Of a DNA stretch of 64,000 nucleotides, positions 27,814 to 35,004 are shown piece by piece (position 1 is the first letter of the stretch; every line of letters starts with the position of its first letter). The translations under genes and the position numbers were made by a program. The DNA is taken from the sequence record NC_031928.1. One strand, written 5' to 3'. This stretch comes from Escherichia phage WG01. The notes beneath the pieces were generated by a model that did no database searches, was not told the origin of the DNA, and saw only the letters and a list, made by a program, of their open reading frames with translations.

Positions 27814-28263
27814 TCAAAAGAGTGAATCCAAAACCTTAAACATCGACGGGCCCATGACATATTCCCATTGTGGCCGTTTAATCAAGGCAAAAGCATCGAA
27901 TTCAGGAATAGTACGACCATCAGGGAACGTATGGTAAGCCGTACATTTGCAATCCTTGAACTGCTCGTGTTCCACAGGAACTGTATATAAGAACAGATGT
28001 AGATTCTTATTGCTTGAATATTTGAACTCACCTAGGTCTTTCAGGAACGCAGGATCGTATGCTGTGAATCCAATCTCTTCTTCGGTTTCGCGCATTGCCG
28101 CTTGAATGGGCTCTTCGCCTGGTTCGACATGACCCTTAGGAATGTCCCATTTATGACGCATATTCTCTGGATTACGAGAGCCTGTTACACGGCCCATGAC
28201 CAGTTCTTTATCAACGGTCATGAATAAAATACCGGCAGATAGTTCTTTCACTTTCTTACTCAT
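27814..28263 (-). CDS. nudE: Nudix hydrolase NudE
   Basis: ATG at 28263 gives 150 aa; Nudix box GHVEPGEEPIQAAMRETEEEIG; follows e as in T4. Confidence 0.85.
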   Translation of the reverse strand: MSKKVKELSAGILFMTVDKELVMGRVTGSRNPENMRHKWDIPKGHVEPGEEPIQAAMRETEEEIGFTAYDPAFLKDLGEFKYSSNKNLHLFLYTVPVEHEQFKDCKCTAYHTFPDGRTIPEFDAFALIKRPQWEYVMGPSMFKVLDSLF

Positions 28264-28492
28264 CGTCTCGTTCCCATGATTGTTTAAAAATATCTTGCAT
28301 AATAATTTGAAGTCTATTTTCTGATGATGGACTTTCACTATCAGACACTTGAAGCATATAGTCACCAATAGGACAGAACATATCCATATCGCTTTCTAAG
28401 TCTTCTTTAATTTTCTCTTCTGATGTTCCGGTATCATAGGAATACAGATAAGAATCACATGACTCAGATTTAATATAAATTGCAATGCTCAT
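28256..28492 (-). CDS. hypothetical acidic protein (78 aa)
   Basis: ATG with AAGGAA RBS lying in the conserved junction motif. Confidence 0.35.
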   Translation of the reverse strand: MSIAIYIKSESCDSYLYSYDTGTSEEKIKEDLESDMDMFCPIGDYMLQVSDSESPSSENRLQIIMQDIFKQSWERDDE

Positions 28493-30067: not shown

Positions 30068-31027
30068 TTATTTTTCGAAAGGACGAATTAAATGTTGGTT
30101 ACGCTTAAACCGTTCAATGTAGTCGTTTTCACCTAAAGTCTTGTACATATTAACCACAGCTTGGTAGTTTTCCCATGCATAAGTGCGGAACCAACCTGAA
30201 GTGATTGAGGTGCACACTTTCTCAAGGGCCATATAGAAACTTAATGATGGTGAAATATTGAAGTCATTAGGAACCTGTGAACGTTCTAGTGCCAGGACAC
30301 AAGTTTCTTCATACACACCAGCCAGTTTAATAGCTTCAGGCAAAGCCTCGAACTTCTCACGAGAGGTCATGACTTCAGAACCTTCCTTCATATAAAAGGT
30401 ATATGCAGGGCGCCCTGCCAATGCCACTGCTTCATGGATAGAGTCGTGGTCTAGGGTATAAATGGTATCATTAAAGAACGATGATTTGTTTACATCCAAT
30501 TTAGGGTGGGAATAGCTCAACGTTTCTTTTTGACGTTGCAACATAATTTCCTGGAGTTCTTCGTTAAGGGTGATACCTTTATTACGAAGGTATTTGATGT
30601 GGGACATGGTTTTCAAGAAGAACGGATTATTCTTCAAGAAACGATGGGAGGTTTTGATAGCCAGACAGATATCAGGGGTTGCCCAATAGAAACCTGTAAG
30701 ACGGTCCTTTTTAATATGATTTTCAGCATATTTCAGAAGACGATAACTTGAGGTGAAATCTTCATCTTGGAGCTCACCGGTGATTTCTCGTACGTTAGTC
30801 AGAGCACGAACGATATATGCTTCAAAATAGGTTTCTTTACCGTTGTACATGCATTTAAAAGCCTGGACATCAGGATTATCCACAGGAACATGGGCACCAA
30901 ACATCCGAGCTTTAAAGTGATTCCATGAGCCTTGGTCGGCAATGAAATCCCAATCAGAATTTTCGATATGCTTACTTTCAATCAGACCAGCGTGGTGCAG
31001 TGCACGAGAACCAATAACTAACATCAT
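30068..31027 (-). CDS. hypothetical protein (319 aa)
   Basis: ATG at 31027 with GAGGA RBS; N-terminal VIGSRALHH...SDWDF is only weakly nucleotidyltransferase-like. Confidence 0.45.
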   Translation of the reverse strand: MMLVIGSRALHHAGLIESKHIENSDWDFIADQGSWNHFKARMFGAHVPVDNPDVQAFKCMYNGKETYFEAYIVRALTNVREITGELQDEDFTSSYRLLKYAENHIKKDRLTGFYWATPDICLAIKTSHRFLKNNPFFLKTMSHIKYLRNKGITLNEELQEIMLQRQKETLSYSHPKLDVNKSSFFNDTIYTLDHDSIHEAVALAGRPAYTFYMKEGSEVMTSREKFEALPEAIKLAGVYEETCVLALERSQVPNDFNISPSLSFYMALEKVCTSITSGWFRTYAWENYQAVVNMYKTLGENDYIERFKRNQHLIRPFEK

Positions 31028-31046
31028 AATATTTTCCTCAGTAAAC

Positions 31047-31286
31047 TTAAATTTCAGCGACGTAATCGTTATGCAATTCCCACATATCATCAGAATTATT
31101 CTTAATGATAGGAATTATCTCATTAGAGATTTCTTCAGCATAAGGGTCATTGATACAGTGGGCATCTTCAAAACGAACACCGTAATCAGACTTCTTATAA
31201 GAGAAGCCATAAATCTTTTTAAACTTGGCGCGAGTAATGCGTACCGGTTCATTAGACTTATCGGACATCGGAGCGTAATACCACAT
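31047..31286 (-). CDS. hypothetical protein (79 aa)
   Basis: ATG ORF downstream of a promoter cassette. Confidence 0.4.
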   Translation of the reverse strand: MWYYAPMSDKSNEPVRITRAKFKKIYGFSYKKSDYGVRFEDAHCINDPYAEEISNEIIPIIKNNSDDMWELHNDYVAEI

Positions 31287-31305
31287 ATGTTCTCCTCATG
31301 TTTGT

Positions 31306-31350
31306 GTAGGGTAATAGTAACATGATTTTCTAGAGTTGTACATCACTTCT
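31306..31350 (-). promoter_or_regulatory. promoter cassette variant
   Basis: TGTACA -35-like and TACTAT -10-like with dyad GGGTAATAG. Confidence 0.4.
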
Positions 31351-31680
31351 GCAATATTCTAAAAATAATTTATCATTGTCTACTGTATCCCAACGACGCC
31401 AAGACGGGTTCCAGACCAAAGCGTTGTCACCACAATCATTGAGCTTAAAATGGTCGTAGTACATAGCTATGTGTCTAGTCTCGTCACCAGAGAACCCCAG
31501 TATAGGCTCACCGCGGGTGTGATACATATGATGGTGCATTGAGAGGTCGCATTTGTAAAACATCTCACGTTTACCACGAACGAACAAGAAGGCCTGTCCA
31601 TTCATATAGAATTCTTTATTTGTTTTCAAAAGATATTTGAATACTGAATCTTTATGCATAAGTCCTCCTACCACATCCAT
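31330..31680 (-). CDS. hypothetical protein (116 aa)
   Basis: ATG ORF; His/Cys-rich. Confidence 0.4.
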   Translation of the reverse strand: MDVVGGLMHKDSVFKYLLKTNKEFYMNGQAFLFVRGKREMFYKCDLSMHHHMYHTRGEPILGFSGDETRHIAMYYDHFKLNDCGDNALVWNPSWRRWDTVDNDKLFLEYCRSDVQL

Positions 31681-31689
31681 GTGGTTAAA

Positions 31690-31917
31690 TTATTTTCCTA
31701 ACGAAATACGAGTAGGTTTTTTACCGAAATAGTCTTCATAAGAACCATCTAAACGACCTGCTTTAGACCGACAATATGAATCGTACTTTTTGTAATAAGT
31801 CATCTCAGTATTATAACGCGGGTGTCTATCAGCCATAATAATACTTAACGGCCAACCTTTGGCATAATCGCGAAGACCATTTATTTTACGAATGTATCTT
31901 TTCTTTAATTTTAGCAT
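31690..31917 (-). CDS. hypothetical basic protein (75 aa)
   Basis: ATG overlapping upstream stop. Confidence 0.4.
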   Translation of the reverse strand: MLKLKKRYIRKINGLRDYAKGWPLSIIMADRHPRYNTEMTYYKKYDSYCRSKAGRLDGSYEDYFGKKPTRISLGK

Positions 31918-32135
31918 GAGCTCGGATACCAGATTTTACCATCGGCCTGAGCAACGAAGGTGCGACCAGCTTCTTCGCCATAACACGAGCTATTCAGCCA
32001 ATCTTCGAGACGAACTTCACCGTCATAATCGTCGAGCTCAACACCAAAACTTTGAGCAGAAGCCATATCTTTTACTTTCTTATACAGTGCAGCCAGTTCA
32101 AGTGCAGCTTTTTCTAATTCATTAATATCAGACAT
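31911..32135 (-). CDS. small acidic protein, paralog family member (C-terminal W..SSC)
   Basis: 74 aa; ATG with AAGGTGA RBS; ends WYPSSC. Confidence 0.45.
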   Translation of the reverse strand: MSDINELEKAALELAALYKKVKDMASAQSFGVELDDYDGEVRLEDWLNSSCYGEEAGRTFVAQADGKIWYPSSC

Positions 32136-32146
32136 TTTTTATCACC

Positions 32147-32359
32147 TTAGCAAGACATAGAGGATGTAAACCAGAAACCTTCACCTTCCGGAATACCGTA
32201 GTCATCACGGACCCATTCGTAATCATCATATTCCGGGTTCTTTGGAGAAATGTATTCTCCACGACCAGAAACACGGAACTCTTCACCCGTTTCGTCAGCC
32301 ACAGACTGGCCTTTACGTACTAATTCACGGATTTGGTTTTCAATTTCATCAATAGTCAT
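32147..32359 (-). CDS. small acidic protein, paralog family member
   Basis: 70 aa; ATG with AAGGA RBS; ends FWFTSSMSC. Confidence 0.45.
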   Translation of the reverse strand: MTIDEIENQIRELVRKGQSVADETGEEFRVSGRGEYISPKNPEYDDYEWVRDDYGIPEGEGFWFTSSMSC

Positions 32360-32368
32360 TTTATTTCC

Positions 32369-32650
32369 TTAACATTCAGAAGAAGAGGACACCCAACCAC
32401 CATTTTCTAGGCTGGTAGTGTAATCATGTTGGTTTACAATAGCGTACTGAGCTTCACCGTATTCTTCCCAGTGGGCAAGGTCGGCTTTCAAGGCGCCAGG
32501 AGAATAATAGTCACCGCCCATACCGCGAGCAGGGTATATATTAAAATGAGTCTCATATTTGTTTGCAATTTCCTCGGCACGACGAATAGCTTTATGGATA
32601 TCATTTACTGCTTCAGCCAATTCTTTATTTTTATGGTAATCATTCATCAT
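32369..32650 (-). CDS. small acidic protein, paralog family member
   Basis: 93 aa; ends GGWVSSSSEC. Confidence 0.45.
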   Translation of the reverse strand: MMNDYHKNKELAEAVNDIHKAIRRAEEIANKYETHFNIYPARGMGGDYYSPGALKADLAHWEEYGEAQYAIVNQHDYTTSLENGGWVSSSSEC

Positions 32651-32659
32651 AAAATTTCC

Positions 32660-32950
32660 TTAGCACATTGCCGAAGAGGAGATCCAAGCACCAACTGTAA
32701 CGACGCCATTTTCAACTTCACCACCGTTGTTTTCAATTTCATCTTTAAACCATTGGGAGCATTCATAACCGACAGGATAATATGTACGGCCTGAACCATA
32801 ATCACCAGTACCGAATTGGATACCATACTTATCGGCAATAGCTTCACATTCATGTTCGATGGTATTCACTTTATTCAGAAGAGCATAGATAGCCTTTTCT
32901 GCAGATTTCTCGTCATTGTGTTCCGGGATTTCAATTTCAATTTTATTCAT
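32660..32950 (-). CDS. small acidic protein, paralog family member
   Basis: 96 aa; ends GAWISSSAMC; shares IA.KY..F...YY core with 32369..32650. Confidence 0.45.
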   Translation of the reverse strand: MNKIEIEIPEHNDEKSAEKAIYALLNKVNTIEHECEAIADKYGIQFGTGDYGSGRTYYPVGYECSQWFKDEIENNGGEVENGVVTVGAWISSSAMC

Positions 32951-33300
32951 GATTTACATTCCTTAATAAAGGTTTCAAGGTCATTACGTTTAGTTTGTTT
33001 TACATACTCATTATAATTAGCCATAGCTAAAGCATATCTCTTTTTACGTGGCTTGTTTATTTTATTAGTTTGGGCAATATCAAAGACCCATGGGATAAAA
33101 AATCCTATTAAAGCCGGAACCCAAATCCACGCGAGGCTCATATCTTCAAACGGATGGCGAGGCATACCATTAATAATCCCACCGACAAGAAATCCAATTA
33201 TCCCTGCAGTCATACTAGTAGCAATGCCGAGGAATAATGAAATAGAGATATCGTAATCTGCTAATGCGTAACCAGGGTCGGTTTTACTAGGCTTATGCAT
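32947..33300 (-). CDS. membrane protein with conserved C-terminal FIKEC tail
   Basis: ATG at 33300; two TM helices; tail ...LETFIKECKS. Confidence 0.4.
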   Translation of the reverse strand: MHKPSKTDPGYALADYDISISLFLGIATSMTAGIIGFLVGGIINGMPRHPFEDMSLAWIWVPALIGFFIPWVFDIAQTNKINKPRKKRYALAMANYNEYVKQTKRNDLETFIKECKS

Positions 33301-33829
33301 TTTGAACCTCTTTAGCGTATTCGCGACATTCAGCAATAAAACGATCAAGCTTACGGTGTTGTTTACGACTTTCTAATGTGTACTCATTAGCCAAAATAAT
33401 AAGCTCATCTTTATCGTAATTTTTAATATCAGAGTAAGATGGGCGACGGTCAACCATTCCAAATACATCACCATTTTCTAAAGCTACATAGCATACTAAA
33501 TGGTAATCATCGTCTGCCATATTAAGAAGCACACAATCAGCGCTCTCGTTTAAAGAATATACTGAATAACGTAGTCCAGCGAATTCCACTCGTTGAATAG
33601 CCAGATTTACGTCAATAATTTCCAAAGCATCTTCAAAAGAAAGGTCTTCAGCTAAAGCAAAAATAAAAGGTAATTTGGTAGTATCGCCACGGCTAGATGT
33701 TCTGCTTAAGAAATCGTTTGAATAGCCTAGGTCTTGGCGAATTCTATAAAGAACTGAATTGGTTTCATGGGAAAGACCACTATTTTTAAACCAATCAATA
33801 TTTGATATCAGGTCGTCATATAAACTCAT
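33293..33829 (-). CDS. hypothetical protein (178 aa)
   Basis: ATG with GGAGGAGAGGAG RBS; C-terminal DRFIAECRE resembles the FIKEC tail. Confidence 0.45.
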   Translation of the reverse strand: MSLYDDLISNIDWFKNSGLSHETNSVLYRIRQDLGYSNDFLSRTSSRGDTTKLPFIFALAEDLSFEDALEIIDVNLAIQRVEFAGLRYSVYSLNESADCVLLNMADDDYHLVCYVALENGDVFGMVDRRPSYSDIKNYDKDELIILANEYTLESRKQHRKLDRFIAECREYAKEVQNA

Positions 33830-34500: not shown

Positions 34501-34545
34501 TAATCCATGAGGACATTATACCCTGTCCTCTGAGGTTTGTAAACA
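34501..34545 (-). promoter_or_regulatory. T4-type early promoter with stem-loop
   Basis: minus strand GTTTACA, 17 nt, TATAAT; dyad GAGGACA/TGTCCTC. Confidence 0.6.
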
Positions 34546-34946: not shown

Positions 34947-35004
34947 TATGTTCTCCTCAAATTATGGGCTCATAATATCTTAATCATGAGCCCATGTAAA
35001 CGTT

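Follow-up and report, generated by a model that had tools for sequence, protein, structure and literature searches.

Protein nucleotidylylation by enzymes with the Pol-beta fold is established for GlnD, GlnE, and MntA, and oligoAMPylation by fused MNT-HEPN proteins is a further example of such protein marking. Here we describe a phage module that can be compared with these systems. In a window of 64,000 nucleotides from Escherichia phage WG01 (NC_031928.1; by the window we mean this whole stretch, and positions are counted from its first letter), four tandem genes for small acidic proteins with similar C-terminal tails lie near a gene for a nucleotidyltransferase. The array and this enzyme make up one conserved module, of which the array supplies the small proteins. 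The initial annotation, which was made from the sequence alone, had missed this main context.

In the pairs GlnD-PII, GlnE-glutamine synthetase, and MntA-HepT, a Pol-beta-fold enzyme covalently marks a partner that is encoded nearby, and the phage module may be analogous. These enzymes modify tyrosine on a folded loop or on a HEPN helix, whereas the candidate acceptors in the phage module are serines in a C-terminal tail. A further lead is provided by the holo-acyl carrier protein synthases CitX and MdcG, members of the nucleotidyltransferase superfamily, which attach a nucleotide-derived prosthetic group to a serine of CitD or MdcC, acidic proteins of about 100 amino acids (aa). We detected no similarity of sequence or fold between these systems and our module, the acceptor serine of CitD is near the N-terminus, and no genes for citrate lyase or malonate decarboxylase are present.

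MenT-type nucleotidyltransferases can pass phosphate to the hydroxyl of a serine or threonine in a protein (PMC11375011). MenA1, which has 68 aa, a long N-terminal helix, and a gene upstream of menT1, blocks the active site of the enzyme or induces auto-phosphorylation of the enzyme's hG[ST] residue (PMC10435456, PMC11375011). The last 17 residues of MenA1 are unresolved in the crystal structure (PMC10435456). The phage module differs from MenA1-MenT1 and AbiEii/MenT (DUF1814) in that it is found only in phages and is not a bacterial toxin-antitoxin pair. In contrast to MenAT1, its enzyme has no Pfam match to DUF1814 and carries an extra, very conserved domain (DUF7275), and each enzyme gene is accompanied by between one and six small genes. 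To our knowledge, MenA1 does not have the invariant W-x-S-S-x-x-C terminus of the small proteins that we describe.

The arrays that encode ribosomally synthesized and post-translationally modified peptides (RiPPs) of the lanthipeptide type are similar in that clustered small genes, with a conserved Ser/Cys C-terminus, lie upstream of one enzyme. The phage module is unlike them in its folded N-terminal part, its variable Ser-Cys spacing, and its absence of known maturase domains. The proteins of the window are clear members of phrog_899, DUF7277/DUF7275, and phrog_2141, which are unannotated bins that record neither the tail motif nor the linkage. We found no description of the module in the literature on DUF7275, DUF7277, the phrog identifiers, the ORF names of phage RB69, DUF1814 in phages, or phage AMPylation, nor any mention of it in the comparative-genomics papers on conflict systems of phages that we consulted. 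We consider it a partner system of a nucleotidyltransferase and small proteins, with a modest chance of new chemistry.

A family of small phage proteins with an invariant C-terminal tail

The array consists of four consecutive open reading frames (ORFs), each with an ATG start, which are transcribed in the order 96, 93, 70, and 74 aa (Table 1). The initial annotation had reported these ORFs, the acidity of their products, an aromatic, serine-rich tail ending in cysteine, and a TG(T/C)-TAA-GG junction that supplies the ribosome binding site of the next gene. Apart from the strand, which is the minus strand, this description holds. The computed isoelectric points (pI) are 4.42, 5.04, 4.17, and 4.22, all four C-termini are as had been given, and three junctions have the form TG(C/T)-TAA-GG(A/T), 8-10 nt ahead of the following ATG. 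At a fourth junction, the ATG of a 75-aa ORF overlaps the Cys codon of the 74-aa gene (TC-ATG-C-TAA). The core described for the two longest proteins, IA.KY..F...YY, is present in the form IA(D/N)KY..F......YY.

The four proteins had also been proposed to be paralogous, and this is borne out by BLASTP (96 aa versus 93 aa, E = 8e-4; 93 aa versus 70 aa, E = 2e-5) and by a single PHROG profile, phrog_899 (function unknown), which matches all four, always at the C-terminal end of the profile. BLASTP alone detected no similarity between the 70-aa and 74-aa proteins. Similarity therefore extends beyond the last residues that the junctions encode. Of the 631 six-frame ORFs in the window that have 40 aa or more, exactly four, those of the array, show the pattern W.{1,3}S[ST].{0,3}C at the C-terminus; in phage T4 it is found in 0 of 1434 such ORFs. 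This excludes a chance likeness of the tails.

The multiple alignment and profile search that the initial annotation had called for show how strictly the tail is conserved. Across 37 close homologues of all four paralogues, the only invariant columns are W, S, S, and C. An exhaustive HMMER search with the profile of this alignment (E <= 1e-3, clusters at 50% identity) gave 371 representative clusters, whose proteins are 70-175 aa long. The match reaches the last residue in nearly all cases, and almost all of the proteins stop exactly at the cysteine of the tail. The family consensus is M..KEA...I.ELVK.A..LI.EAE.IADE.GL.FSF..AYGMGGTYYPKG....DW..SD....EGGWVSSS.SC. Overall identity in the family is only ~26-30%, and yet in an alignment of 188 sequences the tryptophan is found in 187, the first serine in 187, the second in 180 (with threonine in 6 more), and the terminal cysteine in 186. 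The exact form W..SS..C$ ends 163 of the 184 relatives that we collected, and a relaxed form ends 181. We rejected the idea that the tail is a by-product of the junctions, because it is invariant in 371 clusters at this level of identity and in many different junction contexts.

All four proteins of the array end in W-x-(S/P/A)-S-S-x-x-C or in the shorter W-x-S-S-x-C, and so belong to the family. The family also has an N-terminal amphipathic helix that closes with (I/L)A(D/N)x.G..F and leads into a Gly-rich hairpin (YGMGGTYYP or a variant). This feature is clear in the 96-, 93-, and 70-aa proteins and weaker in the 74-aa protein (E = 8e-4 with the family profile). Many members repeat the tail motif two or three times within an acidic, low-complexity linker; examples are RWESSSEGWESSSEGWVSSSSQC, WNSSGCEWESSGC...WNSSSAHC, WESSSEG-WESSSEG-WVSSSSQC, and WNSSGC-EWESSGC...WNSSSAHC. 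This repetition suggests that the motif behaves as a short recognition or modification motif and not as part of a structural core. The spacing between Ser and Cys varies: WYPSSC, WESSGC, and WVSSSxxC are all present, and S-x-x-C is the commonest arrangement.

The paralogues are also old. Using tblastn, the 93-aa protein has matches in 283 phage records, from Dhakavirus, Mosigvirus, and phages of Klebsiella, Citrobacter, and Enterobacter. Types orthologous to the 96-aa protein (GDYGSGRTYYP) are found in the Escherichia coli phage UP17, in Aeromonas phage 31, and in a metagenomic contig (L022). The double-motif type (WLxSSCYGE...WxSSxC), to which the 74-aa protein belongs, adjoins the enzyme gene in Aeromonas phage 31, UP17, Shewanella phage Thanatos-2, and contig L024. 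For each of the three types (GDYGSGRTYYP, (Y/R)GMGG, and double-motif), orthologues occur in Aeromonas and Shewanella phages, in Phapecoctavirus, and in metagenomic phages. Judging from these sequences, the paralogues are ancient types that are inherited as sets, and not recent diversifying copies. Compared with phage Bp7, the dN/dS ratios of the four genes are 0.04, 0.30, 0.14, and 0.26, which indicates purifying rather than diversifying selection. The suggestion of a "diversifying effector family" in the initial annotation does not fit these ratios or the conservation of the types across distant phages.

The AlphaFold2 model of the 96-aa protein is confident (pLDDT 92.2) and has a long helix (residues 14-42) followed by a small beta-sheet. 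It has no solved structural neighbour in the PDB, and its structural matches in BFVD are family members only. Scans of the four proteins against Pfam, NCBIfam, and PADLOC gave sub-threshold noise only, and other members of the family, of typical or greater length, had no Pfam match. Against all PDB sequences, the family profile matched only designed helical bundles, over the N-terminal helix, and we consider these matches spurious. We detected no similarity of the family to HEPN proteins, PII, or glutamine synthetase. We also considered acidic DNA mimics that counter restriction (Ocr, ArdA, Arn). The range of pI (4.2-5.0) would suit such proteins, but there is no Pfam match or PDB structural match, and we rejected this identity.

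The tail genes are linked to a nucleotidyltransferase gene in diverse phages

The enzyme gene of the window begins 884 bp downstream of the last paralogue. Its product has an N-terminal nucleotidyltransferase domain of the Pol-beta type (DUF7277) and a highly conserved, all-alpha domain (DUF7275). The N-terminus, (M)LxIGSxA...D-x-D...E, matches the Pol-beta signature hG[GS]...[DE]h[DE]h with a third carboxylate, and none of G6, S7, D25 (in D25-W-D27), D27, and E69 varies among 40 homologues, some with only ~44% identity. The fold is that of an alpha/beta nucleotidyltransferase, and the closest structural relatives are MenT1 (the best match), MenT3, and MenT4. The C-terminal domain is conserved even more than the N-terminal one: the conserved residues include K125, H128, K139, R165, E168, Y172, and H174, as well as D193-H194-D195, H198, E240-E241, E248-R249, K270, C272, and TSGWFR.

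Across the 40 homologues, Pfam gave only DUF7277 and DUF7275, with no match to DUF1814 even at E <= 1, and PADLOC and NCBIfam gave nothing for the enzyme. RlaP, the RNA-ligase-associated nucleotidyltransferases, are defined by PF10127 (PMC12776372); the enzyme has no match to PF10127, so we rejected this identity. We also rejected HEPN as the identity of the second domain. It has a faint match to the KEN domain of RNase L (E = 0.51), but the histidine of the putative R-x6-H motif varies between homologues, and the window protein has Phe in its place.

Of the 50,697 phage genomes on deposit, 732 encode the enzyme, and its homologues form more than 1,900 clusters. Wherever a locus is flanked by enough sequence, from one to six tail-bearing genes lie beside the enzyme homologue (within ~2.5 kb), and this linkage is seen in T4-like phages, Phapecoctavirus, Otagovirus, Menderavirus, jumbo phages, and metagenomic contigs. 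Using a DNA pattern that was back-translated from YGMGGTYYP, we gathered 13 distant loci from IMG/VR, including jumbo phages of 355-389 kb. Each has one to three tandem genes of the small family. In 10 of these loci, the next gene downstream encodes the enzyme; the other three are cut at that edge. The reverse query, which started from the enzyme, gave the same picture. Four of four divergent metagenomic homologues have two to six tail-bearing ORFs directly upstream, and tail ORFs are beside the enzyme in all six of the isolated phages from different genera (Pseudomonas phage REC, E. coli phage UP17, Stenotrophomonas phage Mendera, Shewanella phage Thanatos-2, Acinetobacter phage PhT2, and Aeromonas phage 31). 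No homologue among 120 has the tail or the small domain fused to the enzyme.

To see what else these loci share, we compared 18 of them: the window, the 13 IMG/VR loci, and the four metagenomic contigs. Only the small family (18 loci) and the enzyme (15) are widely common, and the next most widespread gene cluster is found in 7 of the 18 loci, from two lineages. We also scanned the genomes of 185,579 species and found just six enzyme loci, all of them in phage-like contigs of metagenome-assembled genomes (MAGs). All six have tail-like ORFs upstream, which are degenerate in one (L037). Beyond these six contigs, we found no bacterial toxin-antitoxin or defence-island version of the module among these genomes, so the module is phage-specific.

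These distributions bear on whether the small proteins are independent effectors, directed against the host or its defences (as acidic mimics, for instance) and diversifying against host targets, with the enzyme as a syntenic passenger. The genes are small, acidic, and located early, in a hyperplastic part of a T4-like genome between homologues of e.2 and e.6; copy number differs between phages; and the identity of 96-aa orthologues falls to 53% within related phages. All of this would suit effectors. But the linkage to the enzyme persists in phage groups that have no other neighbour gene in common, the dN/dS ratios indicate purifying selection, and the conservation of the types over phages of Gamma-proteobacteria, Bacteroidota-like contigs, and contigs associated with the candidate phyla radiation (CPR) argues against host-specific diversification. 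We think it quite unlikely that the small proteins act on their own.

No tail genes lie near three distant homologues of the enzyme, from a KVP40-like Vibrio phage, Streptomyces phage TunaTartare, and Gordonia phage Miskis. In these homologues the catalytic core is kept, but T140, R165, Y172, H174, P175, C272, S274, S277, F280, and R281 are missing. Since C272 and its neighbours are missing from these homologues, the comparison, which is with three out-group sequences only, suggests that the tail-associated clade of the enzyme has an added subsite. The homologue in TunaTartare adjoins an RNA ligase gene (L031 2662-4136), and the one in Miskis adjoins a tRNA cluster (L032 3309-7341). The full-length, tail-associated homologue in Shewanella phage Thanatos-2 also abuts tRNA genes (L028 3504-4606). 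These neighbours hint that the enzyme family ancestrally acted on RNA ends.

The co-occurrence of the invariant C272 with the tail family could also be explained if the terminal cysteine joined the paralogues to each other or to the enzyme, by a metal, an Fe-S cluster, or disulfides, with Trp-Ser-Ser forming a pocket. Most members have a single, invariant, terminal cysteine (exactly one Cys in 93 of 184 relatives), and the distinct types are inherited together as sets. In addition, a glutaredoxin gene lies directly beside, and immediately upstream of, a family member in a metagenomic contig (L023 2229-2456) and in Pseudomonas phage REC (L025 493-726), so a redox link to the terminal cysteine of the tail is possible. 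However, a copy number of one to six implies no fixed stoichiometry, the cytoplasm is reducing, the library scans detected no metal-binding family, and such a complex would leave the invariant Ser-Ser unexplained. We give this explanation a low probability.

The tail as a candidate substrate of the enzyme

Because of the linkage, the small proteins look like either substrates or regulators of the neighbouring nucleotidyltransferase. We tentatively favour the substrate model, at somewhat under an even chance: the enzyme would nucleotidylylate or phosphorylate serine in the tail, with the terminal cysteine held by the clade-specific subsite. We favour it because several non-redundant proteins share one tag, which can be repeated and whose invariant residues are nucleophilic, and because MenT-type enzymes transfer phosphate to serine or threonine of proteins (PMC11375011).

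The array and the enzyme form a two-part phage module, probably transcribed together from an upstream promoter of the early type. Each small protein comprises a long N-terminal helix, a small beta-hairpin body, an acidic linker, and the tail W-x-S-S-(S)-x-x-C-COOH. In the mechanism that we propose, the tail would engage the Pol-beta-fold enzyme. Most likely, the invariant pair of serines would enter the active site and offer a hydroxyl group, to be O-nucleotidylylated or O-phosphorylated, while the subsite of the tail-associated clade (R165, Y172, H174, P175, C272, S274, S277, F280, and R281) would hold the terminal cysteine. In this way, one enzyme might mark, switch, or arm several different small proteins early in infection. 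The contact between tail and enzyme, the covalent modification of the tail, the chemistry, and the biological role are what we infer from the conserved residues and the gene linkage.

Several observations weigh against the substrate model. The tail genes of Stenotrophomonas phage Mendera are downstream, not upstream, of the enzyme, and in the window three unrelated ORFs part the array from the enzyme gene. The tail in the model of the 96-aa protein is not free: a strand (88-91) and a helix (92-95) are packed on the domain, with pLDDT ~76. The argument from clade-specific residues is based on three out-group sequences only. Part of the linkage could reflect shared descent, although the flanking genes are wholly different between phage groups, which argues against shared descent as its cause. 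The known targets of protein nucleotidylylation by Pol-beta-fold enzymes are tyrosines, not serines. Finally, MenT1, MenT3, and MenT4 act on the 3' ends of tRNAs, not on proteins, and MenT1 is regulated by a small helical protein that is encoded upstream, which fits a regulatory role equally well (PMC10435456).

In that case, the enzyme would be a tRNA 3'-end nucleotidyltransferase, similar to MenT/AbiEii, that serves in host takeover or tRNA repair, and the small proteins would be inhibitors or specificity adaptors like MenA1. The N-terminal helix would dock on the enzyme, and the acidic tail would plug the active site or mimic a substrate without turnover. The size, helix, gene position, and inhibitory action of MenA1 support this idea. 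So do several features of the phage module: the equivalent residues of the enzyme (G6-S7) are invariant, the small genes are normally upstream, the family shows good conservation in its helix...IADExG..F segment too, and the RNA ligase or tRNA genes beside enzyme homologues suggest an ancestral function on RNA ends. On the other hand, a single inhibitor would suffice, whereas each phage has one to six ancient, non-redundant paralogues, some with internal repeats of the motif. The strict invariance of the nucleophilic Ser-Ser and of the terminal cysteine exceeds what a plug would need. The small proteins were not found to resemble MenA1 in sequence or structure, and the family profile matches neither MenA1 nor any other solved chain. 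The enzyme is near-neutral (median pI 6.2) and has no Pfam match to DUF1814, and the module's absence from the genomes of bacterial isolates implies that it is not a classical toxin-antitoxin pair. A regulatory role is the main rival of the substrate model, but we consider it rather unlikely.

If the tail is instead a substrate, as we favour, the chemistry might go further than the transfer of a nucleotide or phosphate. In maturation similar to that of RiPPs, the enzyme would activate a serine of the tail, elimination would give dehydroalanine, and the terminal cysteine would add to it, to give a C-terminal thioether ring of the lanthionine type. Several precursor-like genes do lie upstream of one enzyme, and the commonest spacing, S-x-x-C, would match the four-residue ring of lanthionine peptides. 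The second, highly conserved domain of the enzyme is rich in His, Lys, Arg, and Cys and could be a second active site, and nucleotidyltransferases of this fold can phosphorylate serine or threonine of proteins (PMC11375011). But neither the enzyme nor the ten neighbouring ORFs contain a LanB, LanC, LanM, LanKC, LanL, radical-SAM, or YcaO domain (by Pfam and PHROG), the spacing from Ser to Cys is inconstant, and the "leader" is a protein with a confident predicted fold (AlphaFold2). Moreover, no enzyme with the Pol-beta fold is known to form lanthionine. This route seems highly improbable.

A broader form of the substrate model is that the module is a system for tagging or maturing phage proteins. 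A MenT-like enzyme with a second conserved catalytic domain would covalently modify a portable C-terminal tag, W-x-S-S-x-x-C, by Ser-O-nucleotidylylation or phosphorylation or by a thioether cap with the cysteine. We judge this unlikely. If it is true, then one enzyme arms a whole set of small early proteins, and the two form a new enzyme-tag pair; the thioether version would also show a new way in which folded proteins can acquire lanthionine-type crosslinks.

Gene neighbourhood and significance

In this region, identity is 99.9% with Escherichia phage vB_EcoM-E33 and 92-98% with other genomes of Dhakavirus (T4-like Straboviridae). In phage Bp7, whose annotation uses T4 gene names, the block is flanked by homologues of e.2 and e.6, and all of its genes are labelled "hypothetical." The features of the window are collected in Table 1.

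Table 1. Genes, gene junctions, and promoter-like sites at the locus in Escherichia phage WG01.
Feature	Position	Strand	Description
Candidate accessory component	28256-28492	-	78 aa, acidic, pI 4.05
Partner enzyme	30068-31027 (ORF open to 31090)	-	319 aa; DUF7277 + DUF7275 (Pfam), phrog_2141
ORFs between array and enzyme	31047-31917	-	75 aa (basic), 116 aa, 79 aa; phrog_7065, phrog_9796, phrog_3723; function unknown
Paralogue 4	31911-32135	-	74 aa; double-motif type, internal WLNSSCYGEE and terminal WYPSSC (KIWYPSSC); phrog_899, E = 1.4e-9
Junction, 70 aa to 74 aa	32136-32146	-	ATGTCTTGC-TAA-GGTGATAAAAA-ATG
Paralogue 3	32147-32359	-	70 aa; C-terminus GFWFTSSMSC; phrog_899, E = 6.2e-14
Junction, 93 aa to 70 aa	32360-32368	-	TCTGAATGT-TAA-GGAAATAAA-ATG
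Paralogue 2	32369-32650	-	93 aa; (R/Y)GMGG-YY-P type; C-terminus GGWVSSSSEC; phrog_899, E = 2.4e-20
Junction, 96 aa to 93 aa	32651-32659	-	GCAATGTGC-TAA-GGAAATTTT-ATG; stop and GGA form the Shine-Dalgarno for the next ATG
Paralogue 1	32660-32950	-	96 aa; GDYGSGRTYYP type; C-terminus GAWISSSAMC; phrog_899, E = 2.8e-23
Best sigma-70-like match upstream of array	34515-34543	-	TTTACA-17-TATAAT, 11/12; consensus match only
Second sigma-70-like match upstream of block	34972-35000	-	TTTACA-17-TATTAT

The three ORFs between the array and the enzyme gene are lineage-specific fillers: we found no homologues of them in the 17 other loci that we clustered, in which nothing usually separates the tail genes from the enzyme gene. 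Over the whole region, sigma-70-like matches are no more numerous than expected from shuffled sequence. On the minus strand, no terminator-like site with a strong stem lies between the best promoter match and the enzyme gene. The promoter match and the terminator result are compatible with possible co-transcription of the array and the enzyme as an early unit.

Homologues of the 78-aa acidic protein lie directly upstream of the tail genes in six jumbo-phage loci (L008, L010, L011, L012, L018, and L019). This protein may be a third component of the module, in two lineages only. The module also tends to sit among genes of nucleotide metabolism (nrd, td, and frd; loci L021, L023, L028, and L033). 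Downstream of the enzyme gene, at a distance of 2-3 kb, the Phapecoctavirus UP17 has a gene of the SIR2 family (L026 6721-7521), as do two related metagenomic contigs (L022 7519-8316 and L024 7107-7856) and a Vibrio phage (L030 6400-7140).

Directly upstream of the array is an ORF of 117-133 aa (32947-33348, minus strand; phrog_2330) whose sequence appears hydrophobic. It has 53% protein identity to its counterpart in Bp7, with dN/dS of 0.67, while the flanking genes are 89-100% identical, and it looks like a local hypervariable gene. In some GenBank records, the ORFs of 30068-32950 bear the names "tail completion protein," "prohead assembly scaffold protein," "host specificity protein," or "major capsid protein." Our data do not support these names, which look like errors of annotation transfer.

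A six-frame scan of the whole T4 genome with the family profile found no orthologue of the small proteins, and T4 has no homologue of the enzyme. The tandem T4 genes tk.1 and tk.2 (NC_000866 60346-60716; ~60 aa) gave matches that are not significant (E = 0.02 and 0.8), over the N-terminal helix only and with no tail motif. A remote relation of tk.1 and tk.2 to the family is conceivable.

The hosts of phages with the module include enterobacteria, Aeromonas, Acinetobacter, Pseudomonas, and Stenotrophomonas, and phage-like contigs with it were binned with CPR (Saccharibacteria) and Bacteroidota (Chitinophagales). Both partners are widespread, and yet they are "hypothetical" or misnamed in GenBank. 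If the small proteins are regulators of a nucleotidyltransferase that acts on tRNA ends, then phages carry MenT-like enzymes together with their own control proteins, which would bear on the takeover of translation and on tRNA-targeting defence and counter-defence. Modification of the tail, if it occurs, would make it a new protein-modification tag, possibly with new chemistry, and a clue to the role of a large block of "dark" early genes in T4-like phages.

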